A stretch of DNA of 64,000 nt from Candidatus Poriferihabitaceae bacterium. Its GTDB lineage: Bacteria > Pseudomonadota > Gammaproteobacteria > Arenicellales > Poriferihabitantaceae. Made by a program: the position numbers and the translations under genes. The notes under the pieces are model-generated. The model was not told where the DNA came from, ran no database searches, and worked only from the letters and a program-made list of their open reading frames with translations. Shown piece by piece: positions 4,116 through 41,946 of the stretch. The number at the start of each line of letters is the position of its first letter. Position 1 is the first letter of the stretch. Location: the NCBI GenBank assembly GCA_965204165.1, contig OZ241969.1, forward strand, positions 4,836,997 through 4,900,996, given 5' to 3'.

Positions 4116-4441
4116 AGATTATTTTGCCTTTCTGGATGCTGCGGCGCATCGTTCTGCTCCGAATACTACCAGCGTTACCGCCCACGGTTTCCGGTTCGAA
4201 GCCAATTTTTGAATCACCACGCACTCAAGAGAACCCCCTGAAGAGCTGCTTGCCCGGCAGTGATCAACATGGAGCGCAGGTACCAAAACGGTATCATCGC
4301 GCAATACGTCGCATTGCGCCGAGGGCCAAAGCGCCACCACCCTGGTGGCAGGCCAGTCCCGGGTTTCCGGAACCCGTTGTATTGGAACGTAATTTCCCGT
4401 ATGCCCACGGAACACCCCGGTGCCACCATATATGACCCGCC

Positions 4442-17636: not shown

Positions 17637-19946
17637 CTCAGTAAGCCTGACCCGGTACATTTCCGGGCATGCAGGTAGGTCTTCACCAGTTTGACGCCGG
17701 GACGGTGAGTTGGTTTTGCGATGCGGTTTCCGAAGCGGGCCGCACGCGGAGTTCGCTGGCCCGTGAGTTGTGCATCCGCGAGGACTGGACGGGGGACCGC
17801 GGCGAGTACTGTCTGGGCTCGGCGCGCAAGGCCCTTCCGGTTCTCGCGGACCGGCTGGGGGTTTCGTTGCCTCCGGCCCGTCCGGCATTCGGCGGACGCC
17901 GGGACGGGGCCCCGGATCCGGATTATCCCGACTGCCGGCTCCGGTGCGGTCTGGCGGAACTGGGCCAGGTGTTGCTGGAGCCGGTATCGGGGAAGGCGGA
18001 CCGCCGCCGCTGGGAGTCGATGATGGCGACGCATCACCCCCGGGGCTGGGCCCGTGCGCCGGGGGGCCAGATGCGCTACTGGGTATGTTCCGCGGTCCAT
18101 GGCCGTCTCGGGGGGATCGGATTCTGCGCCGCGGGCTGGCACCAGAAGGCCCGGGACGAGTTCATCGGCTGGTCGGCGGACGCGCGGGCGGCGAACCTGG
18201 GGAAGGTGGTCAACAACCATCGTTTCCTGATCCTGCCCGGGGTCCGGGTTCACGGTCTGGCCTCGTGCGCGCTGGACCTGGCGGCGCGGCGCGTGGCGGC
18301 GGACTGGGAGGCGGCGTACGGGGTCCGCCCGGCGATGGCCTACACGTATGTGGGTCCCGGCCATTGCGGAACCTGCTACCGGGCGGCGGACTGGCGGCGC
18401 TGCGCGAAGGCCACCACGGCGGGATGCACGGTGTGGATGAAGCCGCTGGCGGAACCCTGGCGTGTGGTATTGTGCGCCGAGCCGGGCCGGGCCATCCACA
18501 GGGCCCCGGCCCTGCACATGGACGGGGCCACGGACTGGGCCGGGCGGGAATACGCGCGCAGCACCCATCCCGACGGCCGGGTCCGGGAGAGGATCGTGTC
18601 CATGGGGCGGGCGTGGCTGGAGCATCCGGGCGCCGCGGTTCCGGAGATCTTCCCGGCGCGGGCGGACCGCAAGGCCGCCTACCGGCTGTTGTCGAACGAG
18701 GGTGTGACCATGAACCACATACTGGAGCCGCATCAGGCGACGATGGTGGAGCGCTGCGGGCTCGAGGAGACCGTCCTGGCGATCCAGGACACCACCACGG
18801 TGAATTACGACGGTCTGGCGGCGACCGGCGGGCTGGTGGACTTCGGCGGCGGCGGGAAAGGCCACACCCTGGGCCTGCTGGCGCATGTGGGACTGGCGGT
18901 CAACGGGGCCGGGCGGCCCCTTGGGGTGTTCTGCCTGGACGGGACCTATTGCGACGAAGGCAGGGACGAGGTGGCGAGCGCGCGCTGGGGGCACGGGCTG
19001 GACCGGGCGGGGGAACTCGCCCGCGCCTGTCCGTCCACGCGGGTGGTCACGGTGTGCGACCGGGAGGCGGACATCTGGGCGTTGTTCGCCCGGGCGGAAT
19101 CCCTGGGCGCGGGTCTGCTGGTGCGCGCGCGGCGGTCGACGAGACGCCGCGTGCTCGTGGAGGCGGGCGGCGAGGAGACCCTGTGGGACCATGTCGCCAC
19201 GCTGCCGAGGGTCGGTTCCCGAACGGTGAAGATCCGGGCCTGCGGCGGCAGGCGGGCGCGTTCCGGTCGCAAGGCGAAGATCGAACTGCGCGCCGGCAGG
19301 GTGAGGGTGCTTCCGCCGGTAAAGCCGGAGAACCGCGCCGGGCACGGGGGACCGATCGAGGTCCTGGCCGTCGTCGCGACCGAGAGGAGCCCGTCTCCGG
19401 GCAGCGAGCCCCTGCACTGGGTGCTGCTGAGCACCGAGGGCGCCGCGGACGCGGCGACCGCCCGGACCGTCGTTGGCTGGTACGAGCGCCGGTGGACCAT
19501 CGAGGAATACTTCCGGGTGCTGAAATCCGGCGCCCGGGTCGAGGACCACCGGTTCGACCACGCCGACGACCTCAGGAAGTGCCTCGCCTTCGACGCCATC
19601 ACCGCCTGCCATGTGTTCGATCTCGAGCGCATGGCCCGCGACAAGCCGGACGTCCCCGCCGACCGGGTCGTCTCCAAGGACGAAATCGCCATTCTCTACG
19701 TCCGGCTCATGGCCCATGGAATCCTCCGCGCACGCCCGCCGCCGGAGCGGCCCCCCGACATCCGTACGCTGGTGGTCGACATCGCCAGGCTCGCCGGATT
19801 CCATCCGCGCAACAGCCAGCCGCTGCCGGGCACCACCATGGTCTGGAAGGGGTATGTCCTGCTCCGTCAGGCCACTTCAACATACCGGGCGCTGAAAACT
19901 ATGGGAATGATCAAAACCGACTGAGTTGAATGTGGGGTGTTGTGAG
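17616..19946 (+). mobile_element. IS4-family element with DUF4338-fused transposase
   Basis: 26-bp imperfect IR CTCACAAC..CCCACA....ACTCAG at 17616-17641 and 19921-19946; no TSD. Confidence 0.85.
17669..19924 (+). CDS. IS4 (IS50/Tn5-like) transposase with N-terminal DUF4338 (DruA-like) domain
   Basis: N-terminal ARDEFIGW, VVNNHRFLILP, GTCYRAADW; DDE LAIQDTT, VCDREAD, YERRWTIEEYFRVLKSG. Confidence 0.88.
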   Translation: MQVGLHQFDAGTVSWFCDAVSEAGRTRSSLARELCIREDWTGDRGEYCLGSARKALPVLADRLGVSLPPARPAFGGRRDGAPDPDYPDCRLRCGLAELGQVLLEPVSGKADRRRWESMMATHHPRGWARAPGGQMRYWVCSAVHGRLGGIGFCAAGWHQKARDEFIGWSADARAANLGKVVNNHRFLILPGVRVHGLASCALDLAARRVAADWEAAYGVRPAMAYTYVGPGHCGTCYRAADWRRCAKATTAGCTVWMKPLAEPWRVVLCAEPGRAIHRAPALHMDGATDWAGREYARSTHPDGRVRERIVSMGRAWLEHPGAAVPEIFPARADRKAAYRLLSNEGVTMNHILEPHQATMVERCGLEETVLAIQDTTTVNYDGLAATGGLVDFGGGGKGHTLGLLAHVGLAVNGAGRPLGVFCLDGTYCDEGRDEVASARWGHGLDRAGELARACPSTRVVTVCDREADIWALFARAESLGAGLLVRARRSTRRRVLVEAGGEETLWDHVATLPRVGSRTVKIRACGGRRARSGRKAKIELRAGRVRVLPPVKPENRAGHGGPIEVLAVVATERSPSPGSEPLHWVLLSTEGAADAATARTVVGWYERRWTIEEYFRVLKSGARVEDHRFDHADDLRKCLAFDAITACHVFDLERMARDKPDVPADRVVSKDEIAILYVRLMAHGILRARPPPERPPDIRTLVVDIARLAGFHPRNSQPLPGTTMVWKGYVLLRQATSTYRALKTMGMIKTD

Positions 19947-20156
19947 CCCTCGGACTGGCCTCCCCAATCCTGGCGGAGGCCGAGCGACGGACCCCGATTC
20001 GTCCCCGAATCCGGATCGAAGGACAGGGCGGCCGAGAAACCCCGGTCCTCCAGGTCGTCGTCGTCGTGACTCACCAGCGCGCGGCCCGAGATGTCGAGAT
20101 CGATGCCGAGTTCCGGGTCATGCCATGAAACCCCGCCGCCGACCTCCACGCCGGAT
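19947..20156 (-). pseudogene. fragment of an autotransporter-like beta-barrel gene
   Basis: GVEVGGGVSWHDPELGIDLDISGRALVSH...FDPDSGTNRGPSLGLRQDWGG resembles the barrels of the two adhesins. Confidence 0.65.
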
Positions 20157-21103
20157 CGATCATGCGTTCGGACGGTTCGCGGAAGAACGACTGCGAGCGC
20201 AACGCGGCGAAGCGTCTGCTGCGTGACGTCCGTCGCGAGCATCCGCACCTGAAGCTGCTGGTGGTGGAGGATGCGCTGGCGTCGAACGGGCCGCACATCC
20301 GGCTGCTGGGGGAACTGGACATGCGGTATGTCCTGGGCGTGAAGCCGGGGGACCATGGGGAACTGTTCCGCCGTGTCGAGGCCTCGGCGGCGACCCGTAC
20401 CGTGGAGAGGTCGGAAGGGGGCGGCAGCCGTTTCCGGTTCCGGTTTCTGAACGGCGTACCGCTGAACCAGGCGAACCCCGATCTGGCAGTGAACTTCCTG
20501 GCGTGCCGGGAGACCCGCCCCGATGGCCGGGAACTGCACTTCTCCTGGGTCACGGACATGGAGGTCACGGAATCGAACGCGCATGACCTGATGCGGGCCG
20601 GACGCGCCCGTTGGCGCATCGAGAACGAGACGTTCAACACCCTGAAGAACCAAGGCTACGGCTTCGAGCACAACTTTGGTCACGGCAAGCGGCATCTGGC
20701 GACGGTGTTCGCCCACCTGACGATGCTGGCGTTCCTCATCGACCAGGTGCGGCAGCGGTGCTGTGCGCTGTTCCGGGCGGCCCGGGAGAAGGCGGGCGGT
20801 TCGAAATACCTGTGGGTGCGGTTGCGCGGGCTGTTCACGGAGTTCTACATTCCGGACCGGGAGACCCTGTACCGGGCGATCGCGTTCGGGCACCGGAAGA
20901 CGGAGTTGGTGCCCTTCGACACTTCCTGACCCGGCGGCCGTGTCCGAATATGCAACGGGCCGGTTCTTCGGGGAATCATGTGGCCAGCAGACAATCCGGC
21001 ACACCGCCCGGAGGGGGTTCCCTCCCCGCGTAGTCGGGGAACAGGGGCTCAAACCATGAAATCCGCCGAATCCAATCCGTGATAGGATTAGCGGGAATTG
21101 CTG
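20157..21103 (+). mobile_element. 5'-truncated copy of the ISNCY (ISDol1-like) element at 38468-40087
   Basis: Near-identical to 39141-40087 (about 3 substitutions seen); keeps the right IR GCGGGAATTGCTG. Confidence 0.92.
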
Positions 21104-21291
21104 AATAGAATGAAGTGCTGATGCCGATGACCGCAACGATGCCTGCAACCTCCACACCGGGAGAACCCGAAATGCTGGATCACATACCTGAAGAACGCGC
21201 CCCGAGCCTGATTTCCATGACCGGGAGCCCCCGGCCCCGGCGGGATTTTCCGCCGTCCCGGATATGGGAAGAATAAAGTCACGGGAGGGAG

Positions 21292-21319
21292 TTGACAGGG
21301 CGGACGGAGCCGATAAAAT
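21292..21319 (+). promoter_or_regulatory. sigma70-like promoter TTGACA-16-TAAAAT
   Basis: Near-consensus hexamers; conserved in the homologous leader at 41517-41544 (minus strand). Confidence 0.55.
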
Positions 21320-21324
21320 GCCTT

Positions 21325-21415
21325 GCCAGCGGCCAGCGGCCAGCGGCCAGCGGCCAGCGGCCAGCGGCCAGCGGCCAGCGGCCAGCGGCCAGCGGCCAGC
21401 GGCCAGCGGCCAGCG
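21325..21415 (+). repeat. heptamer simple-sequence repeat (GCCAGCG)13
   Basis: 91 bp of perfect repeat ending 2 nt before ATG 21418. Confidence 0.97.
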
Positions 21416-21417
21416 GC

Positions 21418-24400
21418 ATGAGGTGCGCCCGGCGCGAGGCCGGCCCGCCTGACCCGGCCGCCGCCCCTCGCGGGCGCGGGCGCAAGCTTCTCTACCTTCT
21501 TGCTGTCCCGTTTGCGGCCCTGTCCCCGTGGCGCCGCCTCGCCCTTCTCCCCGCCGCGCTGCTGCTCTTCGCCCTCCTCGCCGCCGCCGACGCGCGGGCC
21601 CAGGCGCCGCCCGCACCGACGGGTTTGGCGCTCACCGCGGGCGACGGGCAGTTCACCGCGACCTGGAACGCCTCGCCGGGCGCCGGCACCTACGTCATCC
21701 GGTACGCCCCCCAGGGCAGAGCATGGGCCGCGGTCTTCGCGAGGCCCGGCACGGCCACGAGCAAGACGATCGTCAGCAGCTCCGCCATCACGATCTCCAA
21801 CGGGACGACCTACTGGGCCAGGATCAGGGCGTGCGCGGGCACCGCGACCAGCGGCGCGAACTGCAGCGCCTTGAGCGCGCAGGCGACCGTCACGCCCCGG
21901 GCCGCCACCGCACCGCCGCCCACGCCGACGGTTTCGCTGTCGGCCTCTCCGAACCCTGTGACGGAGGGGTCGTCGGTGACGTTGAAGGCGACGCTCTCCG
22001 CGGCGCTGTCGAAAGACGTGACGATCCCGGTGACGACGACCCGGGGCACCGCCGAGCGGGGCGACGTCCCGACGCCGAACTACTTCATGCTGATACCGGC
22101 CGGCGAGACCGCGGCCGCGACCACCATCGCGACGGCGCAGGACACGGACACCGACGACGAGACCTTCACGCTGGCCCTGGCCGTGGGCGAGCTGCCCGCG
22201 GGGGTGTCGGCCGGCCGCCCGAACTCGGTGACGGTGATCATCGACGACGACGACGCGCCGGCGCCGCCCACGCCGACGGTTTCGCTGTCGGCCTCTCCGA
22301 ACCCTGTGACGGAGGGGTCGTCGGTGACGTTGAAGGCGACGCTCTCCGCGGCGCTGTCGAAAGACGTGACGATCCCGGTGACGACGACCCGGGGCACCGC
22401 CGAGCGGGGCGACGTCCCGACGCCGAACTACTTCATGCTGATACCGGCCGGCGAGACCGCGGCCGCGACCACCATCGCGACGGCGCAGGACACGGACACC
22501 GACGACGAGACCTTCACGCTGGCCCTGGCCGTGGGCGAGCTGCCCGCGGGGGTGTCGGCCGGCCGCCCGAACTCGGTGACGGTGATCATCGACGACGACG
22601 ACGCGCCGGCGCCGCCCACGCCGACGGTTTCGCTGTCGGCCTCTCCGAACCCTGTGACGGAGGGGTCGTCGGTGACGTTGAAGGCGACGCTCTCCGCGGC
22701 GCTGTCGAAAGACGTGACGATCCCGGTGACGACGACCCGGGGCACCGCCGAGCGGGGCGACGTCCCGACGCCGAACTACTTCATGCTGATACCGGCCGGC
22801 GAGACCGCGGCCGCGACCACCATCGCGACGGCGCAGGACACGGACACCGACGACGAGACCTTCACGCTGGCCCTGGCCGTGGGCGAGCTGCCCGCGGGGG
22901 TGTCGGCCGGCCGCCCGAACTCGGTGACGGTGATCATCGACGACGACGACGCGCCGGCGCCGCCCACGCCGACGGTTTCGCTGTCGGCCTCTCCGAACCC
23001 TGTGACGGAGGGGTCGTCGGTGACGTTGAAGGCGACGCTCTCCGCGGCGCTGTCGAAAGACGTGACGATCCCGGTGACGACGACCCGGGGCACCGCCGAG
23101 CGGGGCGACGTCCCGACGCCGAACTACTTCATGCTGATACCGGCCGGCGAGACCGCGGCCGCGACCACCATCGCGACGGCGCAGGACACGGACACCGACG
23201 ACGAGACCTTCACGCTGGCCCTGGCCGTGGGCGAGCTGCCCGCGGGGGTGTCGGCCGGCCGCCCGAACTCGGTGACGGTGATCATCGACGACGACGACGC
23301 GCCGGCGCCGCCCACGCCGACGGTTTCGCTGTCGGCCTCTCCGAACCCTGTGACGGAGGGGTCGTCGGTGACGTTGAAGGCGACGCTCTCCGCGGCGCTG
23401 TCGAAAGACGTGACGATCCCGGTGACGACGACCCGGGGCACCGCCGAGCGGGGCGACGTCCCGACGCCGAACTACTTCATGCTGATACCGGCCGGCGAGA
23501 CCGCGGCCGCGACCACCATCGCGACGGCGCAGGACACGGACACCGACGACGAGACCTTCACGCTGGCCCTGGCCGTGGGCGAGCTGCCCGCGGGGGTGTC
23601 GGCCGGCCGCCCGAACTCGGTGACGGTGATCATCGACGACGACGACACTCCCGCCCTGTCCTCGGACGCGAACCTGAGCGCGCTGACGGCGAGCAAGGCG
23701 ACGCGCGCGGCGGGGACGTACACGGGGCTGACCTTTGGGAACTTCTCCGCCGACAGACTCACCTACCATGCCAACGTGGGGGCCACGATCACCCACGTGA
23801 AGCTGACGCCGACGAGTGCGCACGGCGGCGCCTCGATCAAGGTCGGCAAGGGTGCCGGCCTGACGGCGGTGAACAGCGGCACGGAGAGCGGCGCGGTCGC
23901 GCTGGTGTCGGGCGCCGCGAACGGCATCAGGGTCGAGGTGACGGCCGAGGACGGCACGACGAAGAAGGTCTACACCGTCGTGGTGCAGCGGGGGGCCTCG
24001 GACACGGTGGAGCCCCCCGACGGTCCTTCCGGCTTGGCGCTGACCCCCGGGGACGGGAAGCTGGCCGCATCCTGGACCGCCAGCCTCGTCCAGTCGGGCG
24101 TGGTCGACGCCCCCACGCGCTACGAACTCATATGGTACGAGAGCACGGTCGCGAGTCCGGGCTGGGCCGGGAGTCACGTGAGGACCGTCACCGGCAACCC
24201 GCCCGCTACCGACTACGAGATCACCGGACTGACCAACGGCACCGGGTACAGGGTGCGCGTGCGGGCGTGCAACGCGGGCGGTTGCTCCCTGTCCGAAAGC
24301 CGGATCGCCACGCCCCGGGCGCCGACCCGGACGCCCGCCCTGTCCTCGGACGCGAGCCTGAGCGGTCTGACGCTGTCGTCGGGGACGCTGGCCTTCTCGC

Positions 24401-27400
24401 CCGGCACGCTGCGCTATTCCGTGGAGGTGGCGAACGAGGTTGCGAGTCTCGTGGTGACGCCGACGGCCAGCGACGGCGGGGCGAGCGTGACGGTGAACGG
24501 CGGGCCGCCGGGCGCTGCCGTCGCGCTCGGCGCGGGCGAGACCGTGGTCACCGTCCTTGTGACGGCCGCGGACGGGACGACGGTGCGGACGTATGAGGTG
24601 ACGGTGACGCGCGCTGCGGCGCCGTCGTCGCTGACGCTGAGCGCGGCTCCGGCGCCCGCGGAGGGCGGCGGCGTCGTGACGGTGACGGCGATCCTGGACG
24701 CGGCGGCGCCCCAGGGCGGCACGGTGGTGGCGCTGGCGCTCTCGGGCACCGCGGAGGGCGGCGGCACGGACTACCGGCTGTCGTCGCCGACCATCGCGAT
24801 CGCCGCGGGCGAGACGCAGGGCACGGCGACGATCGCCGTGGTGGATGACGCCGAGAACGACCCCGGCGAGACCATCGTCATCGACGCTTCGAGCGTGAAC
24901 CCGGCGCTGACGGCGGACCCGCTCACGCTGACCATCGCGGACAATGACAAGGCGGTGGCGACGGCGCTGACATTGCGCGCGGCGCCCGCGCCTGCGGAGG
25001 GCGGCGGCGCGGTGACGGTGACGGCGGCATTGAACGGCCCGGCGCCGGAAGGCGGCACGGTGGTGACGCTCTCCGTGGGTGCGGCGAGCACCGCCACGGA
25101 TGCCGACTACCGGCTGTTGTCCACGATCATCCGGATTGCTGCGGACGAGACCAGCGGCACGGCGGTCCTGAGCGTGATCGACGACGCGGTGGACGACGAC
25201 GGCGAGACGATCGTGCTGAGCGCGACGAGCGACGCACCGGCGCTGACGGCGGACCCGCTCACGCTGACCATTGCCGACAATGACGCGGTTCCGGCGTCTC
25301 TGCGCCTGGCGTCCTCGCCGGCTCCTGCGGAGGGCGGCGGCGTCGTGACGGTGACGGCGATCCTGGACGCGGCGGCGCCCCAGGGCGGCACGGTGGTGGC
25401 GCTGGCGCTCTCGGGCACGGCCGAGGGCGGCGGCGTGGACTACACGCTGTCCTCCGCGACCATCGCGATCGCCGCGGGCGAGACGCAGGGCACCACGACG
25501 GTCACGATTGTTGACGATGCGGTCGAGGACCCGGGCGAGACCATCGTCATCGACGCTTCGAGCGTGAACCCGGCGCTGACGGCGGACCCGCTCACGCTGA
25601 CCATCGCGGACAATGACGCTGCGGTGGCGACGGCGCTGACATTGCGCGCGGCGCCTGCGCCTGCCGAGGGCGGTGGCGCGGTGACGGTGACGGCGTTGCT
25701 GGACGCGGCGGCGCCCCGGGGCGGCACGGTGGTGGCGCTGGCGCTCTCGGGCACGGCCGAGGGCGGCGGCGTGGATTACACGCTGTCCTCCGCGACCATC
25801 GCGATCGCCGCGGGCGCGACGCAGGGCACGGCGACGGTCACGATTGTTGACGATGCGGTCGAGGACCCGGGCGAGACCATCGTCATCGACGCTTCGAGCG
25901 TGAACCCGGCGCTGACGGCGGACCCGCTGACGCTCACCATCGCCGACAATGACAAGGCGATGAACCTGATGCCGTCGTTCGGGACGGCGACGGTTGCCGA
26001 CCGGTCGTTCATGGCGGGCACGGCGATTACGGCGCTCTTGCTGCCGGCGGCGGCGGGCGGCGACGGGGCGCTGAGCTACCGCCTGACGCCGGCCCTGCCG
26101 CCGGGGCTCGTGCTGGACGCGGCCACGCGCACGTTGCGCGGTACGCCGACGGAGCCGCGGGGGTCGCGGCAATACACCTGGACGGCGACGGACGCGGACG
26201 GGGACAGCGCCATGCTGACCTTTGCGCTCGCGGTGACGGAGGATGCGCGCCCTGCGGAGGTGGAGGAAGCCGTGAAGCGGGCGCTTGCGGCGTTGGCGCG
26301 GCGCGCAATGGCGGGGGCGCTGGACAATATCGGCGCGCGGTTCGCCGACATCGGCGCGAGCGGGATGTCGCTGGCGGGCCGGCGGGTGCCGCTGGAGGGC
26401 GGCGCCGCGCAGGCGGCGATGGCGGAGGACGCCGGGCTCCGGCGCTGCGCAGCGGATCGGCGCCCGGCCGACGGCGGCGCGTCCGGCGCACCGGCTGGCT
26501 GTGCGCCGGCGGGGTGGAGCCGGTCGATGACGGCGGCGGGCCTGTTCGGGGCGAGCGGCTTCTCGCTGCATCTGGGCGCGTCCGGCGGAGAGGACGGGGT
26601 TTCCACCCCGGCGGCAGCGCTGTGGTCGGTATGGGGAGGGGGCGACCTCGGGACGTTCGCGGGCCGCGGTGCGGCGGGGCTCGGCTACGACGGCAGGCTT
26701 CGCACGGGCTGGCTGGGGGTCGACGCGCGGTCCGGGTCCTGGGTTGCCGGGCTGGCGGTGTCGCGCGATGAGGGCGAGGCGGACTACGGCTTCGCCGAGG
26801 GCGCTCTTGCCGGCCGGGGCCGGCTGGAGGCGGCGCTGACCTCGGTCTACCCCTACGGGCGCTGGACGCTGGACGACGGGCTGGAGCTGCGCGCGGTCGT
26901 GGGCGCGGGCTGGGGCGAGGCGCGCCACAAGCCGGAGGCCGGGAAAGCCGGGACGGGCGGCCTGTCGATGCGGATGGCGTCGCTGGGGGTCAGGCGCGCG
27001 CTTCCCAATGTCGCCGGCATGGCGCTGGCGCTACGGGCGGATGCGAGCGTGACGCGGATCGAGACCGGCGACGGCCCGGAGGCGATCCATGGCCTGAGCG
27101 CCGACAGCTGGCGGCTGCGGGCGGGGCTGGAAGCCTCGAGGCGCATCGCGCTCGCGGGCGACGGCGCGTTCGAGCCGTTCTTCGAGGCGGCGGCGCGTCG
27201 GGACGGCGGCGACGATCTCGAGGGGAGCGGCGTGGAGCTTGCCGGGGGGCTGCGCTGGCGCGCGCCGGGCGTGTCCGTCGAGGCGCACGGCCGATGGCTT
27301 GCGATGCACAGCGAGGACGGCGCGGAGGAGAAGGGCGCGAGCCTGACGGCGCGGGTGGGTCCGGGCGCCGACGGGCGGGGCCTGTTCTTCTCGCTTGCGC

Positions 27401-27729
27401 CCCGCTGGGGTGCGGCGACGGGCGCGGCGCGGGCGCTGTGGAACGAGGAGATGCCGAACCCGGCGGCGTCGGACGGCGCTGCCGCGGTGGACGCGCGGGT
27501 GGGCTACGGCATGGCGCTGTTCGGCGGCCGCTTCACCGGCACGCCCAACCTCGGCTTCGGGCTGTCGGACGGCGGGGCGCGCGACTACAGGCTCGGCTGG
27601 CGGCTCAACTCCGCGGTGCCGGGCGACACCGGCTTCGAGGTCAGCCTCGACGCGACGCGGCACGAGGCCGCCAACGACAACGCGCCGCCCGAGCACGGCG
27701 TGATGCTCCGGAGTTCGATCCGCTGGTGA
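21418..27729 (+). CDS. giant autotransporter-like adhesin (FN3, Calx-beta-like, cadherin-like beta-sandwich and Ig repeats, C-terminal beta-barrel); start uncertain (TTG 21292 or ATG 21418)
   Basis: Signal peptide ...LLAAADARA|Q; FN3 (PTGLALTAGDG...YWARIRA); IIDDD repeats; SDANLSAL; LPPGLVLD Ig; barrel ending in W. Confidence 0.88.
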   Translation: MRCARREAGPPDPAAAPRGRGRKLLYLLAVPFAALSPWRRLALLPAALLLFALLAAADARAQAPPAPTGLALTAGDGQFTATWNASPGAGTYVIRYAPQGRAWAAVFARPGTATSKTIVSSSAITISNGTTYWARIRACAGTATSGANCSALSAQATVTPRAATAPPPTPTVSLSASPNPVTEGSSVTLKATLSAALSKDVTIPVTTTRGTAERGDVPTPNYFMLIPAGETAAATTIATAQDTDTDDETFTLALAVGELPAGVSAGRPNSVTVIIDDDDAPAPPTPTVSLSASPNPVTEGSSVTLKATLSAALSKDVTIPVTTTRGTAERGDVPTPNYFMLIPAGETAAATTIATAQDTDTDDETFTLALAVGELPAGVSAGRPNSVTVIIDDDDAPAPPTPTVSLSASPNPVTEGSSVTLKATLSAALSKDVTIPVTTTRGTAERGDVPTPNYFMLIPAGETAAATTIATAQDTDTDDETFTLALAVGELPAGVSAGRPNSVTVIIDDDDAPAPPTPTVSLSASPNPVTEGSSVTLKATLSAALSKDVTIPVTTTRGTAERGDVPTPNYFMLIPAGETAAATTIATAQDTDTDDETFTLALAVGELPAGVSAGRPNSVTVIIDDDDAPAPPTPTVSLSASPNPVTEGSSVTLKATLSAALSKDVTIPVTTTRGTAERGDVPTPNYFMLIPAGETAAATTIATAQDTDTDDETFTLALAVGELPAGVSAGRPNSVTVIIDDDDTPALSSDANLSALTASKATRAAGTYTGLTFGNFSADRLTYHANVGATITHVKLTPTSAHGGASIKVGKGAGLTAVNSGTESGAVALVSGAANGIRVEVTAEDGTTKKVYTVVVQRGASDTVEPPDGPSGLALTPGDGKLAASWTASLVQSGVVDAPTRYELIWYESTVASPGWAGSHVRTVTGNPPATDYEITGLTNGTGYRVRVRACNAGGCSLSESRIATPRAPTRTPALSSDASLSGLTLSSGTLAFSPGTLRYSVEVANEVASLVVTPTASDGGASVTVNGGPPGAAVALGAGETVVTVLVTAADGTTVRTYEVTVTRAAAPSSLTLSAAPAPAEGGGVVTVTAILDAAAPQGGTVVALALSGTAEGGGTDYRLSSPTIAIAAGETQGTATIAVVDDAENDPGETIVIDASSVNPALTADPLTLTIADNDKAVATALTLRAAPAPAEGGGAVTVTAALNGPAPEGGTVVTLSVGAASTATDADYRLLSTIIRIAADETSGTAVLSVIDDAVDDDGETIVLSATSDAPALTADPLTLTIADNDAVPASLRLASSPAPAEGGGVVTVTAILDAAAPQGGTVVALALSGTAEGGGVDYTLSSATIAIAAGETQGTTTVTIVDDAVEDPGETIVIDASSVNPALTADPLTLTIADNDAAVATALTLRAAPAPAEGGGAVTVTALLDAAAPRGGTVVALALSGTAEGGGVDYTLSSATIAIAAGATQGTATVTIVDDAVEDPGETIVIDASSVNPALTADPLTLTIADNDKAMNLMPSFGTATVADRSFMAGTAITALLLPAAAGGDGALSYRLTPALPPGLVLDAATRTLRGTPTEPRGSRQYTWTATDADGDSAMLTFALAVTEDARPAEVEEAVKRALAALARRAMAGALDNIGARFADIGASGMSLAGRRVPLEGGAAQAAMAEDAGLRRCAADRRPADGGASGAPAGCAPAGWSRSMTAAGLFGASGFSLHLGASGGEDGVSTPAAALWSVWGGGDLGTFAGRGAAGLGYDGRLRTGWLGVDARSGSWVAGLAVSRDEGEADYGFAEGALAGRGRLEAALTSVYPYGRWTLDDGLELRAVVGAGWGEARHKPEAGKAGTGGLSMRMASLGVRRALPNVAGMALALRADASVTRIETGDGPEAIHGLSADSWRLRAGLEASRRIALAGDGAFEPFFEAAARRDGGDDLEGSGVELAGGLRWRAPGVSVEAHGRWLAMHSEDGAEEKGASLTARVGPGADGRGLFFSLAPRWGAATGAARALWNEEMPNPAASDGAAAVDARVGYGMALFGGRFTGTPNLGFGLSDGGARDYRLGWRLNSAVPGDTGFEVSLDATRHEAANDNAPPEHGVMLRSSIRW
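21916..23646 (+). repeat. five apparently identical 348-bp (116-aa) tandem repeats
   Basis: Units start at 21916, 22264, 22612, 22960 and 23308; the fifth is a few bases short. Confidence 0.95.
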
Positions 27730-32363: not shown

Positions 32364-32364
32364 C

Positions 32365-34010: not shown

Positions 34011-37000
34011 ATCCCGGGCGGGACCGCGGCCTTCCCGGCCCTGGCGCGCTTCTCCTCAGGCTTCCTGAAAACTGCCGGGAAGAAATCCCGAAATAATCCG
34101 GGCCAGAAATAAAGTTGGCACAATCCAGGCCAAACCGTCCCACTTGCCTTCCAGATAATCCGGGACAGCCAGGTTCAAATTATGTGAGTCCTAACATCCA
34201 GCGCTCTGCCAAAAGCACGCTCAATTCCGCTTTAGCCTTCTCCCGCGGGCGCCGGACGCGCGCAGGCACCACAGCCAGGTCATGGTGCTCCGCCATTTCC
34301 TGGTAGGTGGGGTTGATGTCGGGCTCGTACCGGTGGGCCTTCACCACCGCGGACCGCAGGTTGTCGGGCACGACAATCTCGGGACAGCCACCCATCCAGG
34401 AGAAGCAGTTCTGGTGGGACGTGATCCAGTCTTCCAGTCCCTGGGTCCAGGTGACCTCGGCATAGGTGTAGCCCGACGCACCCAGCGCCGCCACGAAGAG
34501 CTGGGCCTGGCGCTCCTCCCCCGTGGACGGGTCGATGATCCCCACCGTCATGCCGGCGTAGTCCACGAACAGCTTCTCACCCGCCTTGTGGTCCTGCCGC
34601 ATCACCAGATCCAGCTTGCCGGCCCACTTGCGGTAGTGCCGGCAGAACCAGGAATACTCGTATCCCTCGGGGTTCCCCTCCCGGTACTCGTCCCACAGCA
34701 GTTGCAGGGTCACGCCCTTGCGACGGAGCTCCTTGTGGATGTACACCCAGTCCGGGACCCCCCGCTTCCTGGCCAGCCGCCGGGGCTCCGGCGGTGGAAA
34801 CAGGCGCCGCTCGAGATCGGCGTCGTTCAGATTATCCGGAAGTGGCCACGAAAGCCCCTCCTGGTCCAGCCGCAACAGATAGTTGCTGACCGTGGTGTGG
34901 CTGATCCTGCAGATCCTGCCGATTTCCCGGTTGCTCAACCCTTGCTGGTTCAGCCTCAGGATTTCCTTGATTTTTCGCATGGATAGACTCTTGTGTGGCA
35001 TGGGCGCCTCCTCGTTGAAAAGGCGGGCACCATACCGGGTTGTCAATCATGCGTCGTTCGGCTCCGATGGGAGTGTATGCCTTGGTGAAAGTGGCAACTT
35101 TCACCGTGGAATGAGTGGCAACTTTGCCGTGGAATCGGTGGCAACTTTCAGCGTGGAATGGGTGGCAACTTTGCCGTGGAATACCCAGCCTGTCCCGATC
35201 GTCCCGCCCATCCGGTTGAATTCGCCGGATTCCCCGTCGGCCGACGCCCTCTCCGTCATCGAAACGCATCCGGACGTCTACAACACGGGGCTGACCCGGG
35301 CGCGCGGCTGTCGCCGGACGATGGAGTGCGCCGAACACCACACCCCTGACCGGAAGACGGTCCGGTTCGCCCTGAGCCGGAAAAACCCGTTTCCGCACAC
35401 GCCCCGTATTTCGGCATCACCGGGGCCTGACGCGCAGGACCGGCAGGGCGCCGGCGGCGCCCCGCCATGTCCGGACTACCAGCGGACCACGCCCCTCAGC
35501 AGCACGCCGTGCCTCGCGTCCCCGTCCGCGGGCTCGTTCCGCACCGCGTCCAGGCTGAGACCGATGCGCGGCCCTTCCGTCCGGACCGGCTCCAGCCGCC
35601 AGCCCACGCGCCAGTCGGTCGCCCCGCCGTCCGCGCCTGAAAAACCCACGTTCGGCGTGCCCGTGTACCGGCCCCCCGACACCGCAATCCCGTAGCCCGC
35701 CTCGGCGCGGAGACCCCGGCCCGCCTCGAACTCTCCTCCAGGCGCCAGCTCCCGCGCGTCCCTCGCGCCCCACAGACGGTCCGCCGAACCCGAAGGCGTC
35801 CCGAAGGTCGGCGACAGGCTGAACGACAGACCCCGGCCACGCTCGCCCGGGTCCAGCCGCACCGTGGCCGACGCGCCCCATTCCTCGTAATCCGAATCCG
35901 CGTGGGACGCCAGCACCCGCGCCTTCGCCTCCAGCGACAGGCCCGTGGCCGGGTTGGCGTAGCTCACGCCCGCGCCGATCTCCACGCCCGTCCCCGTCTC
36001 CGCGTCCCCGCCGTCATGGCGAAGGCCCAGTTCCAGCACGGGCCGGAGCGTCCTGCCTTCATCGAGCCAGAACGTCCGCCCGCCCTCCAGCAGCACCCGC
36101 ACCCGGTTTGTTTTCGCTTCAGTCGCCACGGAGTTCGCGGCCGTGGCGGAGTCCGTCCGCACGTACAGCGCGTCCGCCTTCAGCGCGAGGTCCATGCCGC
36201 CTTTCCCGTATTTTCCGTCTTTCCCGCCCTGCTCCAGCAGCGCGCCCCGGGCCCCCAGGGCGCCCATCCGCATCGACAGGTCCGTCCTCACCGGGGCCGT
36301 GCCGTCGTCGAACGTGATCGCCATGTCGCCGGTGCCCCAGCCCACCAGGCCCCAGGCCGACACCCGGTCCGTGATTTCGTAGCGGCCGTAGGGGCTCACC
36401 GTGGTCATCGCGCTCTCCAGGCTGCCCTTCGCCCCCGTCTGGGCGCCGGAGTCGTCGAACGTGCCCTCGCCCTCGCTCAGGCCGATCGCCACCCCGGCCA
36501 GCATCCGGCCCCAGTCGGCGTCCGTCCCCAGGGTCCCCGTCGTCACCTCGCCGTCGATGCCGAGGCGGCCGCTGTCGGAAGCCCGCTCGCCGTCGAACCC
36601 GCCATGCGCCACCCGGCCCCAGGCCGCGAGGCCCGGGCCCGAGCCGTCCATCCGGCCCGCCGTGTGGAACGAACTGCCCAGCAGCATTTCGCGGCCCGTC
36701 ATCGAGATCTTGCCCGTGTTTCCTGCTGTTCCCGCAAGGCCGGAATCATTCCAGCGGTCCCCGGCGCCGAGCCGCGCGAACGGATCATGATCGTCCGCCT
36801 GCGCCGGCGAACCGGAACGCTGCGCAAGGCCCGTCAGCACGTCCATCAGCGGATCGCCGTCCTCCCCGCCCGACAGGTCCAGGGGCTGGCCCGCCAGCGT
36901 CGCGTGGGTCCCCGGCGCGAGGTCGCCCTCCAGCCTGCCGGACACCGCGTCCGCCACGTGGCTCCCCGCCGTGCGCCCGAACCGCGACAGCCACGCCCGC

Positions 37001-38467
37001 TGCAGCTCGTCGTCGTTCCTGACGACCCCCTTCGCCTCGCGGTGGATCTTGCGCAGGTACGCCCCCCGCGGGTTCGAGAGCTTCAGCCCGAACGTCTCCT
37101 TGCCCTCGTCGATGGCGTCGTCGAGGATCGCCACGCTCACCGTCTTCGCCGTCTCGCCCGCCGCGAAGGTCAGGGTGCCCGACGTCGCCGTGTAGTCCTC
37201 GCCCGCCGTGGCCGTGCCGTCGGCGGTCGCGTAGTCCACCGAGACCGCGCCCGACGCCGCGCGGCTCAGCGTCACCGCGAAGTCGAGGCTCGCGTCCTTG
37301 CCTTCCTTCGCCCGCGCGTCCTGGGCCCGGATGCGCGCCGGGCCCCGGACCTTCGCCGACGCCCCGCCGAGCGCGATCTTCACGTCCTTCCAGGACTCCG
37401 GCTTGACGCGCACCCGCCACAGCACCGGGTCCAGCGGCTCCACGCCCGTCACCTTCCCGGCCGTCACCTTGAACGCGTCGGGAGCGGGCTTCGAGCCCGA
37501 CTGCACGTCCAGCGCGAACGCCGTCCGCCCGTCATGCTCCGCCGGGACCTTGCCGAACTCTACCGCCACGGTCTGGGTTGCCGCCCGCGGCGTCGTCTGC
37601 TCGCCCTTCACCCGGACCCACCCGCTCGAGTGCTCGCTGCGCTCCGACCGCAGCCGGCCCACGAAGGCGCGCACGAACACCCCGGTCGCCACGCCGTTCC
37701 TCAGCCCGGTGATGGTGTAGCCGTTCACACCGGCCTCCACGGCAACGCCGTTGTTGCCCGACGGGTTGGCCCACACGCCCGCCTCCTGGCTCCAGCGCAG
37801 CGCGTGCTGCACCCGCTCCGCAGCGACGCGCGGGTGCGCCACCGCCGTCCAGTTCACCGTCAGGCTGCCGTCGCCCGGCACCACCCGCACGTCGGCCGGC
37901 TCCGGCGTGACCAACACCTCCTGCTGCTGCTGCGGACCCGCCGCGACCCTCGCACTCGACGTGTTCGACAGCGACCGCCCGTCCGGCGTGCACACCGCGC
38001 CCGACGGCTCGTCGTCGCAGTCCCGCCCGCCAGCGAGCGTCACCGTCACGTCGCTCGGCGACGTCGGCCGCACCGTGACCCGCCACAGCCCGGCGCCGAT
38101 CTGCTCAACGCCCGTCACCCGGCCCTGCGTCACCGCGAACGACCACAAGCGCGGCGACCGGCTGAAACTCCCCACCGTCTCGCTCAGACGCACCCGGAAC
38201 GCGAACTCCGTGCCGTCATGCTCCTCCGGCACGTCCTCGAAGACCGCCGTCAGCGGGTCGCCCTGCTGCTCCCCGCCGGAGCCCGGCCCCTCGCCGCCCT
38301 CGAATTCCGCGGTCCCGGACCCGCCGCCGTAGGCGCTGCCGACGTTGATGTCGTACGTCACCGACGACCTCCCCCGCGGCAGGTACACGGTGACCTGGTT
38401 TGTCATTATCTGGTTCTCCACGTCCTTCGGGACTCCGAGAAGGCACAGGTTGAACGTGGTGCTCCGC

Positions 38468-40087
38468 CAGCAATTCCCGCCATCATCTGTAGTCCAATAA
38501 AGACGTGGGTTTGAGGCGGTGCTGGGGGAAGGCGGTTCGCAGACTTTTCCTGAAAAGGCGGTATGATCCGTCTGATTTCACGATATCGGATGATCTGTCA
38601 TGTCGAAAGCCGTGTTTCGCAAGACCCTGAGCGTTCCGGGTCTGCTTCGGGTGGTGCGTGGGCATTTTGATCGCATTGAGGATCCCATCGTGAGCCGGGG
38701 CCTGGCACTGACGGACTGCCTGATGTCGGGTCTGGCGGTATTCGCGCTGAAGTACCCGTCGCTGCTGAGTTTCGAGCAGGACGCACGGGACGAGGGCCGG
38801 ATCCGGTCGAACCTCAGGGAACTGTACGGGGTTGGCCGCGCGCCGTCGGACACGGCGATGCGCGAGCGCCTGGACCTGGTGGACCCGCGTGCGCTGCGGG
38901 GTGCCTTCAAGGGTGTGTTCGCGGCCCTTCAGCGTGGCAAGGGTCTGGAGGGTTTCACCTGGCTGGGCCATCATCTGCTGTCGGTGGACGGGACGGGGTA
39001 CTTCTCGTCGAAGAGTGTGCATTGCGACCATTGCTGCGAGAAACATCACCGTGACGGCAGCACCACCTGGTACCACCAGATGCTGGGGGCGGTACTGGTC
39101 CACCCGGAGCACCGGGAGGTGTTCCCGCTGGCGCCGGAACCGATCATGCGTTCGGACGGTTCGCGGAAGAACGACTGCGAGCGCAACGCGGCGAAGCGTC
39201 TGCTGCGTGACGTCCGTCGCGAGCATCCGCACCTGAAGCTGCTGGTGGTGGAGGATGCGCTGGCGTCGAACGGGCCGCACATCCGGCTGCTGGGGGAACT
39301 GGACATGCGGTATGTCCTGGGCGTGAAGCCGGGGGACCATGGGGAACTGTTCCGCCGTGTCGAGGCCTCGGCGGCGACCCGTACCGTGGAGAGGTCGGAA
39401 GGGGGCGGCAGCCGTTTCCGGTTCCGGTTTCTGAACGGCGTACCGCTGAACCAGGCGAACCCCGATCTGGCAGTGAACTTCCTGGCGTGCCGGGAGACCC
39501 GCCCCGATGGCCGGGAACTGCACTTCTCCTGGGTCACGGACATGGAGGTCACGGAATCGAACGCGCATGACCTGATGCGGGCCGGACGCGCCCGTTGGCG
39601 CATCGAGAACGAGACGTTCAACACCCTGAAGAACCAAGGCTACGGCTTCGAGCACAACTTTGGTCACGGCAAGCGGCATCTGGCGACGGTGTTCGCCCAC
39701 CTGACGATGCTGGCGTTCCTCATCGACCAGGTGCAGCAGCGGTGCTGTGCGCTGTTCCGGGCGGCCCGGGAGAAGGCGGGCGGTTCGAAATACCTGTGGG
39801 TGCGGTTGCGCGGGCTGTTCACGGAGTTCTACATTCCGGACTGGGAGACCCTGTACCGGGCGATCGCGTTCGGGCACCGGAAGACGGAGTTGGTGCCCTT
39901 CGACACTTCCTGACCCGGCGGCCGTGTCCGAATATGCAACGGGCCGGTTCTTCGGGGAATCATGTGGCCAGCAGACAATCCGGCACACCGCCCGGAGGGG
40001 GTTCCCTCCCCGCGTAGTCGGGGAACAGGGGCTCAAACCATGAAATCCGCCGAATCCAATCCGTGATAGAATTAGCGGGAATTGCTG
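38468..40087 (+). mobile_element. ISNCY (ISDol1-like) element
   Basis: IR CAGCAATTCCCGC at both ends; 9-bp TSD GTGCTCCGC. Confidence 0.93.
38600..39913 (+). CDS. DDE transposase (ISNCY/ISDol1-like)
   Basis: SVDGTG, KNDCERNAA, VEDAL, RWRIENETFNTLKNQGY. Confidence 0.92.
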   Translation: MSKAVFRKTLSVPGLLRVVRGHFDRIEDPIVSRGLALTDCLMSGLAVFALKYPSLLSFEQDARDEGRIRSNLRELYGVGRAPSDTAMRERLDLVDPRALRGAFKGVFAALQRGKGLEGFTWLGHHLLSVDGTGYFSSKSVHCDHCCEKHHRDGSTTWYHQMLGAVLVHPEHREVFPLAPEPIMRSDGSRKNDCERNAAKRLLRDVRREHPHLKLLVVEDALASNGPHIRLLGELDMRYVLGVKPGDHGELFRRVEASAATRTVERSEGGGSRFRFRFLNGVPLNQANPDLAVNFLACRETRPDGRELHFSWVTDMEVTESNAHDLMRAGRARWRIENETFNTLKNQGYGFEHNFGHGKRHLATVFAHLTMLAFLIDQVQQRCCALFRAAREKAGGSKYLWVRLRGLFTEFYIPDWETLYRAIAFGHRKTELVPFDTS

Positions 40088-41441
40088 GTGCTCCGCTGCC
40101 CCGCCTGGATGTAGGCCATCGGATACTTGCGATCGGAATTCAGGAAGACCGGGTCCCACGCATCCATCGGATCGCAATGGCTTACCAGGTCGGGATCCCT
40201 CACGTCCGTCCACACACGGCTGCCGACCCTGCCGTACGTGCCCAGGGATATGATGGTCTCCGCGGCGACCGCCGTGGGCACCGATACGGTCACCGTGTGG
40301 GTGCGCGGCGCCGGGCTCGTCACGGTCACGGTCACAGGCTCCGGCACCTCGACCACGGCCAGAGTCACCGCGAAGTTGCTCGCCCACACGGCGGGGTTTC
40401 TTTGTGGGTCGGTGGGGTGTGGATGACCGTAGGAGCCCCAGCGCATGTCGTCGACGGGCCAGGAGGCGGTGGCCGAAGTGCCACTGGCGGTCAGATTCCT
40501 CAGGGGGAACCGCCTTTCGGCGCCAGCGGGATACTTGACGATCAGCATCAGCGACCTTGCAGCGGTGATCGCGGCGGCGCTGCCCGAGCTCAAGCCCGCG
40601 AACACAGTGCCGTTGCGGTGATAGAAATCGCTGATGGTGTAGGTATTGCCCGCGTAAGTGAACCTGTTGGCGCCCATCGCGAGGGGGCAAGTGCCCCCCG
40701 ACACACCGGTCCTGCAGCCGGACGAGTCCGTGCCCCATCGCGTCGGCTCGAGGGCCTTCGCCGCCATCGTGGTGGACCAGATCTGGTTCTTGTCGTGATG
40801 CCGGGTTCCGTCCGGCCAAGTCCACGGCGACTTCGCCGGAATCTCCAGCTTCACCGCGACCTGCTGGCCGTCGGTCCATTGCGGGTCGACATACCAGTTG
40901 TGCCAACCGGTATCGCTAAATCTAACAACTCCACCAACGGGTAGCCGCACAGTGCCGAGATGCAACACCATCCCGTCAAACTTCGACCCTGCTCTCGGGG
41001 CCCCTGCAGGCGAGCCCGGTACTTCTACCCCGCGCAACTGCAACGATACCCGACCATTGTTGTAATAAAGGTTGTTGACGGTATAATCCTCACCGTTGTG
41101 CTCGAGTTCATCTTCCGTGAGCGCCGAGGAGCAGCCAGTGCCATCGCAGCCGAGATACGCCCCGTCGTCGTCGATATCATCGACTGTCAGCGTCGCCGAC
41201 CAGACGGTGGTCTGCGCCGCGGCGGGCGCGGCCGCGAACAGGCCGAGCGCCCCGAGCAGCAGCGCGAGGACGGGGAGGCGGGCGGGGCGGCGCCATGCGG
41301 ACGCTGACCGGCGCGAGACCGCCGGAGCGGCGCCATGGCCGCCGGTCGGTCCGGATGAAGGGGAGAGGGGGTTGCGTGCGCGCCCGCCAGCGGCGGCGGC
41401 CGGTTCAGGCGGGCCGGCCTCGCGCCGGACGCACCTCATGC

Positions 41442-41511
41442 CGCTGGCCGCTGGCCGCTGGCCGCTGGCCGCTGGCCGCTGGCCGCTGGCCGCTGGCCGC
41501 TGGCCGCTGGC
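41442..41511 (-). repeat. heptamer repeat (GCCAGCG)10
   Basis: 70 bp perfect repeat in the same position relative to the adhesin-2 ATG (41439). Confidence 0.97.
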
Positions 41512-41946
41512 AAGGCATTTTATCGGCTCCGTCCGGCCTGTCAACTCCCTCCCGTGACTTTGTTCTTCCCATATCCGGGACGGCGAAATCCACCGCCGGG
41601 GCCGGGTGGCCCGCGGCCATGGAGCCCGGTTGCCGGACGCGTTCTTCTGGCATTGGATCTGTCATTTCGGTTTCTCCCGGTGTGGAGGCTGCAGGCATCG
41701 TTGCGGTCATCAGCATCAGCTCTTCATTCGAAGGACTTGCAAAATTGCCTGAGTGAGCGGGGTTTCGACCGCCAGCAGGCGATTTTCGAAGCAGGGCCAA
41801 GGGGTCGGACGGTGGTATAGTGAGTTCTTGTCCAACACACTGGTTCACCGCACAACCCGATACCCCGTGCGACGACTATATCCAACCTCCGCTACCTTTT
41901 CAAGACTGACTGACTGACTGATGAACTTTTTTCCGTTATCAATATA

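Follow-up and report, generated by a model that had tools for sequence, protein, structure and literature searches.

A heptamer-repeat cassette ahead of twenty loci, nearly all giant surface-protein genes, as a candidate phase-variation system in a gammaproteobacterium

To our knowledge, phase variation driven by simple sequence repeats (SSRs) is known almost only from small-genome, host-adapted pathogens. The opa genes of Neisseria make up a multi-copy family of outer-membrane surface proteins with a tract for each paralogue and combinatorial display; their tract, (CTCTT)n, has a 5-nt unit and is translated within the signal peptide, with no embedding in a promoter or an upstream open reading frame (uORF). 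Here we describe an SSR cassette found twice in a 64,000-nt stretch of DNA from a Candidatus Poriferihabitaceae bacterium (assembly GCA_965204165.1, contig OZ241969.1, positions 4,836,997 to 4,900,996; the window hereafter), where a shared leader with a promoter-like site and a (GCCAGCG)n heptamer tract stands directly ahead of two giant adhesin genes, gene A and gene B. The cassette resembles opa in its distribution over a multi-copy outer-membrane surface family, one tract per paralogue. The organism, which has a 5-Mb, 62% G+C genome and is not known as a pathogen, devotes one repeat cassette to about 20 loci, nearly all of them for giant surface proteins.

The closest known heptamer system controls hmw1A and hmw2A of Haemophilus influenzae, where expression is inversely proportional to the number of (ATCTTTC)n units and a hairpin is cut by RNase III (PMC12721329; PMC8262952). 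The two systems agree in several respects: the heptamer starts at a -10 box, it precedes very large secreted adhesins, the cassette is common to paralogous loci, there are two promoter-like sites, n differs between copies or strains, and the repeat RNA is predicted to be double-stranded. They have, however, no sequence relationship. The hmw repeat is described as lying between P2 and P1 in a long 5′ untranslated region (5′-UTR) that pairs with a G-rich arm, with a graded effect, whereas here both promoter-like sites are upstream and the tract lies inside a predicted uORF, 2 nt before a start codon that lacks a Shine-Dalgarno (SD) sequence. The present cassette also occupies 20 loci rather than two, and its host is GC-rich and not a known pathogen.

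A repeat in a leader-peptide gene is described for pil1 of Streptococcus gallolyticus, in which the length of a leader containing (GCAGA)n destabilises a premature transcription terminator; the number of repeats sets how far ribosomes reach on the leader, resulting in stochastic control of the pilus genes (PMC3894217). Our cassette is like pil1 in that the SSR appears to lie inside a small upstream ORF and not in the adhesin gene. It differs in having no terminator-like site at copy A, copy B or the family loci T03 and T09, in a unit of 7 instead of 5 nt, in serving a Gram-negative-type autotransporter family of 20 copies, and in that the uORF stop can overlap the adhesin start within the motif ATGA, an overlap that points to stop-start coupling. 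The heptamer of E. coli K1 neuO, (AAGACTC)n, is located in the coding region, where n mod 3 decides the frame and n ranges widely among genomes (PMC13001214). The neuO repeat is downstream of the gene's own start codon, whereas the adhesin start follows the tract here.

The present cassette resembles a mixture of the HMW and pil1 systems, is a member of neither, and is not of the neuO type. It joins a heptamer behind a promoter, as in HMW, with a repeat in a leader ORF, as in pil1, and adds the stop-start overlap. What is new, as judged from its sequence, is a tract within a conserved uORF that has its own SD and ATG, crosses a promoter-like site and would be able to end at an ATGA overlap. 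Its array is pure, its position is relevant to expression, and n varies between nearly identical flanks, as in SSR contingency loci. Our full-text search of the literature gave no paper connecting sponge symbionts to SSR phase variation and none in which a GCCAGCG heptamer is called phase-variable.

Architecture of the cassette and variation of its repeat number

The leader of copy A (21108..21324, + strand) spans the distance from the junction with an insertion sequence (IS)-like element to the tract, and aligns with the leader of copy B (41512..41728, - strand) and with 16 other leaders of the genome. Copies A and B can be aligned from about 21108 and 41728, respectively, to about 85 nt past the ATG, at a mean column identity of 84% with gaps. 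Each leader carries a promoter-like site, P1, with the sequence TTGACA-16-TAAAAT (copy A, 21292..21319, + strand; copy B, 41517..41544, - strand), matching the consensus at 11 of 12 positions. In copy A, a perfect (GCCAGCG)13 tract follows (21325..21415, + strand; 100% matches and 13.3 copies by TRF), then GC and the stop-start motif ATGA, at which gene A (21418..27729, + strand; 2103 aa) begins. The tract of copy B, identified by reading the sequence and by repeat finding, is a perfect (GCCAGCG)10 (41442..41511, - strand), followed by GC and the ATG of gene B at 41439. Neither ATG is preceded by an SD. All of this bears out the earlier note on this DNA, written from the letters alone, which had reported tracts of 13 and 10 units, the GC-ATG junction without SD, the shared leader and TTGACA-16-TAAAAT in both copies. 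Its statement that the passenger regions differ is likewise correct, with Calx-beta, Cadherin-like, LapA and fn3 domains in gene A (Pfam) and gene B being a 97-98% paralogue of another family member, T16.

The genome (G000) is a single contig of 4.99 Mb with 62.5% G+C, and it contains 20 such cassettes: 18 (GCCAGCG)n loci (T01-T18, gene A being T17 and gene B T18) and two with variant units (T19 and T20). The 18 follow the pattern TTGACA-16-TA[A/G]AAT-GCCTT-(GCCAGCG)n with n from 5 to 20, and the junction of P1, GCCTT and repeat is common to 20/20 loci. At the heptamer loci, 5 nt separate the -10 box from the tract, and another 2 nt separate the tract from the start codon. Purity is 100% even in arrays as long as 20 units, and all 19 perfect heptamer arrays of at least four units in this genome are family loci. 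The P1 hexamers vary only at position 3 of the -10 box across the 20 loci, with variation at 5 of the 16 spacer positions. The score of 11/12 applies to copies A and B, T03 and T09, as compared with 0.1-0.2 such sites in 50 shuffles of the copy A and copy B regions. This architecture and its conservation are observed directly.

Downstream of the tracts, the family ORFs encode 900-3450 aa and share an N-terminal signal region, in which a hydrophobic stretch and then an Ala-rich site are visible in the translated proteins. One C-terminal motif with a terminal W is found in 13/19 family proteins; the C-terminus of gene A is more divergent and also ends in W, and that of T19 ends in F. Several members are broken: T06 (164 aa), T07 and T09 (59 aa each), T05, which is truncated, and T18, which is split by an IS. 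T04 has no start codon after its tract, and its C-terminal domain is shortened to about 309 residues, compared with 353-359 in other members, and is 33% identical to that of gene A. T19 (L190) consists of (GCCCAGC)5 at C1:1287665-1287699 ahead of a complete family gene of 1589 aa. No ATG follows this tract, and the sole canonical in-frame start upstream is an ATG at -7 that overlaps the -10 box (TACAATG). T20 (L189) is an octamer array, (GCCCAGCG)26, at C1:4295087-4295294 on the minus strand, which stands after the same P1-GCCTT junction and has neither an intact uORF nor an ATGA junction. Beginning 23 nt beyond the array is a gene whose product is a TolC-like efflux protein of the outer membrane (Pfam OEP, E=2.8e-29). 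Because the cassette is also found ahead of this unrelated gene, the promoter-repeat module is portable, as the earlier note had suggested when it spoke of a portable promoter-plus-repeat module in front of a surface-protein repertoire; its 20 loci fit that description, with the one at T20 placed before the TolC-like gene.

Two of the leaders are themselves interrupted. The 5′ half of the T14 leader, with its SD-ATG motif, lies about 3.7 kb upstream beyond an insertion, and the leader of T19 is interrupted at the corresponding position by about 2.1 kb of inserted DNA. The same left end of an element interrupts two leaders at an identical site (AAAGTCAC), 45 nt before the tract, at C1:4745866 and C1:1285471. 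An element end, ...TTAGCGGGAATTGCTGA, adjoins both the promoter of T14 and the start of the copy A leader (window ~21090-21107).

Comparison of paralogues reveals that the tract is hypermutable relative to its flanks, as the earlier note had supposed. T07 and T09 differ in n (7 vs 20), yet their flanks differ at only 4 of 605 upstream positions and at none of 1500 downstream, T03 and T15 (12 vs 7) have 521 identical nt upstream, T01 and T02 (16 vs 9) are 99.6% identical over 1399 nt, T06, T16 and T18 (13, 12 and 10) have 0 mismatches in about 400 nt, and T11 and T12 (14 vs 17) are 99.0% identical over 1102 nt. T08 and T10, which lie within the same duplicated block as T07 and T09, have five units each and are 100% identical on both sides. 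Taken over paralogues with 0-5 flank mismatches, the tract differs by 2-13 units. The same fast change of n is seen in a related organism, where the loci L138, L140 and L146 from three assemblies share identical 230-nt upstream flanks and have 7, 9 and 9 units, values that come, like all n of the related loci, from short-read assemblies in which repeats may be collapsed. Contigs built at k=31 from four sequencing runs end at the leader or in the tract, and none bridges the tract.

Searches of this genome, of other genomes and of metagenomes yielded the 20 loci above and 12 related loci. Leader DNA was found in G000 only among 31 genomes, and the tract-ATG junction in G000 only among 243 genomes of its order. 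A scan of genome contigs with (GCCAGCG)4 returned at least 117 stretches from many phyla; among the 117 matches listed, the context was homologous in only two, L122 (recorded as 'MAG: Rhodospirillaceae bacterium bin65', MAG being metagenome-assembled genome) and L070 (recorded as a Vicinamibacteria MAG, which may be mis-binned), and a third, L034, ends inside the tract. Looking for further tracts in the genomes of these three recovered only the known locus in each of G243 and G244 and two contig-end tracts in G245. Among 25 genomes of the order of L122's genome, G243, the junction occurs in G243 only. Since G243 belongs to a different order and is absent from the matches in the order of G000, the cassette is present in at least two orders. 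Metagenomes scanned with the promoter-tract junction of G000 gave 0 matches, and those scanned with the tract-ATG junction gave 10 loci (L138-L147).

All 12 related loci have TTGAC[AG], a spacing of 20-21 nt and a TA[T/C]AAT box (TATAAT or TACAAT). In 11 of them, the tract starts 2-3 nt beyond the box and leads into GCATGACG; in the twelfth, L141, three earlier interrupted units intervene between the box and the perfect units, and the box is 2 nt before those. The related leaders cannot be aligned with those of G000, whereas the cassette and the first ~90 nt of the gene are kept (L122 vs G000). The patchy spread, with one genome in 243 and one in 25, suggests either that the cassette was transferred horizontally or that fragmented assemblies have lost the region. 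GCCAGCG tracts also occur in other contexts: more than 25 contigs of a Planctomycetota MAG (maxbin.317) carry them, often mixed with ACCAGCG and GCCAGCA units, and Marichromatium gracile and M. bheemlicum have many tract loci followed by GCCAG[G/A]AGATTGAACCGCAAAG, in a context that differs from the cassette.

The adhesin start codon and the upstream reading frame

The position of the adhesin start is constrained on both sides of the tract. At 17/19 autotransporter-family loci of G000, an ATG or GTG stands 2-10 nt past the tract, in frame with the signal-peptide region despite many indels, and from this position of the start codon it follows that the tract is outside the adhesin ORF. Of the 12 related loci, only L145, a broken gene, has an ATG, GTG or TTG in the adhesin frame ahead of its tract; at their present n, the other 11 genes can therefore start only at the post-tract ATG. 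The base directly after the start codon is A, giving ATGA or GTGA, in 17/17 G000 loci and in both relatives found through their tracts (L122 and L070); codon 2 is otherwise variable (AGG, AGC, AGT, ACG). The 10 metagenome loci were left out of this count because the search pattern required TGA.

Upstream of the tract, 17 of 18 leaders have the motif GGAG[A/G]A...AATG at -153 to -183, and in 16/17 leaders with this SD-ATG the uORF is open through P1 into the tract. In copy B, it starts at ATG 41665, with a GGAG SD 8 nt upstream, and runs for 86 codons through P1 and the tract (41405..41665, - strand) to a TGA at 41407-41405, 34 nt past the tract. Only copy A departs from this pattern: its uORF (21160..21276, + strand; SD GGAG at 21160-21163, ATG at 21172) has only 34 aa, as a 1-nt deletion not shared by the other leaders makes the long frame stop early at a TAA (21274-21276). 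Copy A does have a short ORF (21318..21452, + strand) that leads from ATG 21318, with a GGAG 8 nt upstream, through the tract to a TGA at 21450-21452, and that does not share the frame of gene A at n=13. The related loci have an SD-ATG at -107 to -210 with a frame open into the tract.

As a control, we applied dinucleotide-preserving shuffles to the 220 nt upstream of the promoter (2000 trials) and scored them for an SD-ATG ORF that enters the tract from at least 90 nt upstream. Such an ORF arose by chance in 1.9-9.8% of shuffles, as against 9/9 representative leaders (T16, T09, T11, L138, L145, L122, L070, L147 and L141). The idea of the uORF was formed on G000, L122 and L070, and L138-L147 were examined later. 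Indels within the uORF are of 3, 3, 6 and 6 nt, besides 1-nt differences beside the -10 box.

The units, at 7 or 8 nt, are in no case divisible by 3, and the fate of the uORF depends on n mod 3: it ends on the TGA overlapping the adhesin start, continues into the adhesin in the same frame, or meets a TGA 34-76 nt inside the gene, the two non-adhesin frames having their stops at +3 and at +34 to +76. Among the 15 scorable loci of G000, seven are in frame, eight are in the late-stop phase and none is in the ATGA phase, a count that leaves out T04 (late-stop phase, no ATGA junction) and T14 and T17, which lack a connected uORF. The 10 scorable related loci, with L139 dropped for want of an SD-ATG in view and L140 and L146 counted once, comprise one in frame, two with a late stop and seven in the ATGA phase. 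Under equal phases, 0/15 has a probability of 0.0023 and 7/10 of 0.020. Plain n mod 3 over 18 loci is distributed 3/8/7 and does not depart from uniform (p=0.31), because two classes of leader enter the tract in different frames.

Readings of the cassette

We are confident, given its placement and variability, that the cassette acts as an SSR-based expression switch of some kind, and the 20 loci very probably constitute a slipped-strand contingency system for the surface-protein repertoire. How n would act is a less certain matter. In the scheme that we favour, the parts are ordered as a second promoter-like site (P2), the SD-ATG of the uORF, P1 inside the uORF, (GCCAGCG)n, and, with no SD of its own, the ATG or GTG at which a giant autotransporter-like surface protein begins. 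Ribosomes from the upstream ATG would translate through the tract, and n mod 3 would fix where they arrive. Stopping at the TGA that overlaps the adhesin start would permit stop-start coupling and yield the native protein, probably the ON state; an in-frame run into the adhesin would give an N-terminally extended fusion; and overshooting to the stop 34-76 nt inside the gene would probably be OFF. Transcripts from P1, which would begin at the tract, could add a component that is independent of frame and perhaps dependent on tract length. We infer uORF translation, the coupling and the identity of the ON phase from sequence features, and we place the proposition that n acts through the uORF frame somewhat below an even chance, which is nonetheless ahead of the length rheostat discussed below. 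In its favour we count the fast change of n at one specific position, the adhesin start beyond the tract, the conserved SD-ATG frame and its indels of 3 and 6 nt, the ATGA junction, the candidate P2 sites and the contrast in phase between G000 and the related loci, with pil1 as a precedent. More tentative still is the full proposal of a three-state switch (coupled ON, fusion, overshoot OFF) for about 17 autotransporter genes, built as a portable module present in two orders and of a kind not yet described. Since one unit gained or lost would shift a locus to the next state, we propose that each cell draws its own set of surface proteins.

The earlier note had also asserted that frames opened at upstream starts depend on n. 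Its frame statements are correct: TTG 21292 and TTG 41544 share the frame of the long ORFs, and the frames from ATG 21318 and ATG 41665 stop past the tract. The dependence is plausible given the conserved SD-led uORF; the part that does not stand is ON at n=0 mod 3, which would apply only under the less likely reading in which the uORF is fused to the adhesin. Frame-dependent coupling would instead put the leader class to which copies A and B belong in the ON state at n=2 mod 3. The suggestion that TTG 21292 and TTG 41544 serve as start codons in the ON state is not supported, as they are the first three bases of the -35 hexamer and the adhesin starts after the tract.

Several observations weigh against frame-dependent coupling. 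P1 is a very good promoter by its 11/12 score, and transcripts from it would lack the uORF start. No terminator-like site was found at copies A and B, T03 and T09. Substitutions in the uORF show no excess at third codon positions, and position 2 changes most in 16 pairwise comparisons; hence the peptide is not conserved, and what would be kept instead is translation. The two leader classes differ by 23 nt, which brings their uORFs into the tract in different frames. Were the ATGA phase ON, all 15 scorable G000 loci would, oddly, be OFF or fused. Copy A, T14, T19 and T20 have open genes and no connected uORF. The contrast in ATGA phase between G000 and the related loci (Fisher p=0.00025) speaks for coupling, but it came to light post hoc and relies on related-locus n from short-read assemblies.

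Many of the same observations fit a frame-independent rheostat in the 5′-UTR, of the kind known from HMW1A and HMW2A, in which P1 drives expression, the tract is an untranslated leader, output is graded by tract length and the uORF plays no role. We regard this main rival as possible and rather doubtful. Besides the quality of P1 with its 16-nt spacer, its hexamers are kept in 20/20 loci despite a variable spacer, a TATAAT or TACAAT box is found 2-3 nt before the tract in 11/12 related loci, the module at T20 stands with neither an intact uORF nor ATGA in front of its OEP gene, T14, T19, T20 and copy A have open genes without a connected uORF, and plain n mod 3 is near uniform. The HMW heptamer is likewise placed just past the -10 box of P2 and is transcribed (PMC8262952), and the predicted self-pairing of our tract recalls the HMW hairpin cut by RNase III (PMC12721329). 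Alone, the tract RNA is predicted to pair with itself at -61 kcal/mol for n=13, with about -5.3 kcal/mol for each added unit; however, the fold is no more stable than that of dinucleotide shuffles (z=-1.36; 17/200 shuffles fold equally well), and the accessibility of the AUG is flat from n=4. In the related loci, moreover, the hexamers are spaced by 20-21 nt, and no canonical promoter was found in L140. The rheostat leaves unexplained the conserved SD-ATG ORF that enters the tract, the invariant A of ATGA and the missing SD or spacer between tract and start codon, and it predicts no phase contrast such as 0/15 vs 7/10. Nor does the tract look untranslated, given that in silico an SD-ATG ORF runs through it in 16/17 loci and in relatives.

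Quite improbable is phase variation within the ORF, of the neuO or opa type, in which the upstream SD-led ATG is the true adhesin start and the leader class of copies A and B is ON at n=0 mod 3. The upstream ATG owns the only good SD, the units of 7 or 8 nt and the early stops in both other frames suit such a switch, 7/15 scorable G000 loci are in frame, and T19 has an intact gene of 1589 aa with no post-tract ATG and its ATG at -7 in frame, T04 also being without a post-tract ATG. The neuO gene offers a precedent for a heptamer in the 5′ coding region that is ON when n is divisible by 3 (PMC13001214). Against this, 11/12 related loci have no in-frame upstream start, and the one locus of 10 in the fusion phase is a broken gene, while an ATG or GTG directly after the tract is kept in 17/19 family loci. 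Fusion would add about 51 + 7n/3 residues to the ~50 found ahead of the signal peptide's hydrophobic core, for a total well over 100, and we know of no Sec signal with well over 100 residues ahead of its core. The uORF peptide sequence is unconstrained, and the in-frame TTG at 21292 belongs to the -35 hexamer itself.

A neutral microsatellite, that is, a slippery GC-rich repeat that arose once and spread by duplication or gene conversion in an IS-ridden and partly decaying family, would account for the broken members (T04, T05, T06, T07, T09 and T18), the IS elements that adjoin or split leaders and the identical heptamer tracts in many unrelated genomes, but is equally improbable in view of the same position of -10 box, tract and ATG in two orders whose leaders are otherwise unalignable, the 100% purity of arrays up to 20 units, the restriction of all 19 G000 heptamer arrays to one kind of site and the conservation of the uORF and ATGA motif around the tract.

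If frame-dependent coupling is correct, it would generate combinatorial surface diversity within a population, which bears on coping with host recognition, phages or grazing, and the cassette would offer a clean, testable case in which a slippery repeat is read out through translational coupling. Its 20 naturally occurring alleles, with n=5-20, units of 7 and 8 nt and intact or broken uORFs, provide a ready allelic series. Neither gene in the window is a clean example, as gene B is split by an IS and the long uORF of copy A is broken.

Two further ideas were considered and rejected. An attenuator was set aside with 0 terminator-like sites at the four loci; in L140, one terminator-like site lies within the uORF, upstream of the tract. 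Occlusion of the AUG by RNA structure was set aside because the predicted unpaired probability is flat for n of at least 4.

The candidate P2 sites, which would supply transcripts that include the uORF, are TTCACA-17-TAGAAT (10/12) at T03 and TTGCAA-18-TAGAAT (9/12) at T09; none was found at copy A. In the leaders of T01, T02, T07-T10 and T13, a second small repeat, (ATGCGG)1-5, is located 3 nt after the upstream box TAGAAT, and thus both promoter-like sites of the cassette directly precede a variable repeat. Copy B has an upstream promoter-like TTGAAA-17-TATAGT (41903-41875, minus strand), adjoined by an (AGTC)4.5 repeat (41904-41921, minus strand) that is present in T16 and has no copy of its unit in T06.

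Genes A and B and the surrounding mobile DNA

Of the two giant adhesin genes named in the earlier note, only gene A is intact as an ORF. It has a long N-terminal signal region, five identical repeats of 348 bp and a C-terminal autotransporter-like domain that ends in W. The nearest ESM Atlas clusters to its C-terminal 359 aa are autotransporter beta-domains (0.99, 0.96 and 0.95). Pfam returned no match at E<=1, the PF03797 barrel included, for the C-terminal 459 or 474 aa of the downstream proteins; a phmmer search of PDB with the C-terminal domain gave one chance match (E=0.56) and no sequence relative, and NCBIfam gave sub-threshold matches only. The five 348-bp units, at 21914-23646, are arranged head to tail and are 100% identical, and a second array at 24629-25959 has four copies of a 336-bp unit at 79% identity. 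The number of modules in the passenger of gene A is probably variable too.

Gene B is interrupted by a 1618-bp insertion sequence (38468..40085) with a DDE transposase ORF (38600-39913, + strand) that matches DDE_Tnp_1 in Pfam and gives weak IS4 matches in NCBIfam. The 5′ part of the gene (40086..41439, - strand) corresponds to nt 1-1351 of T16 at 97.8%, and the 3′ part (35476..38467, - strand), which encodes Calx-beta and the family C-terminal domain, to T16 nt 1341-4332 at 97.3%. T16 nt 1341-1351 are matched on both sides of the insertion, as an 11-nt target duplication.

The window holds further mobile DNA. The IS-like element that adjoins the leader of copy A occupies 17669-21107 of the window; its ORF at 17669-19924 has DruA-like and transposase DNA-binding domains, and its ORF at 20162-20929 has a DDE_Tnp_1 domain. 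Between the two adhesin genes lies a block of about 7 kb (28160-35182) with arrays of 23-24-nt repeats, inverted relative to each other, at its two ends (28160-28239 and 35090-35182). Its ORFs include one for an IstB-like ATPase (28539-29387, E=2e-76) and one for an rve integrase that has a helix-turn-helix domain (34180-35046), and by this content it looks like an IS21-type element with extra ORFs that lack a Pfam match.

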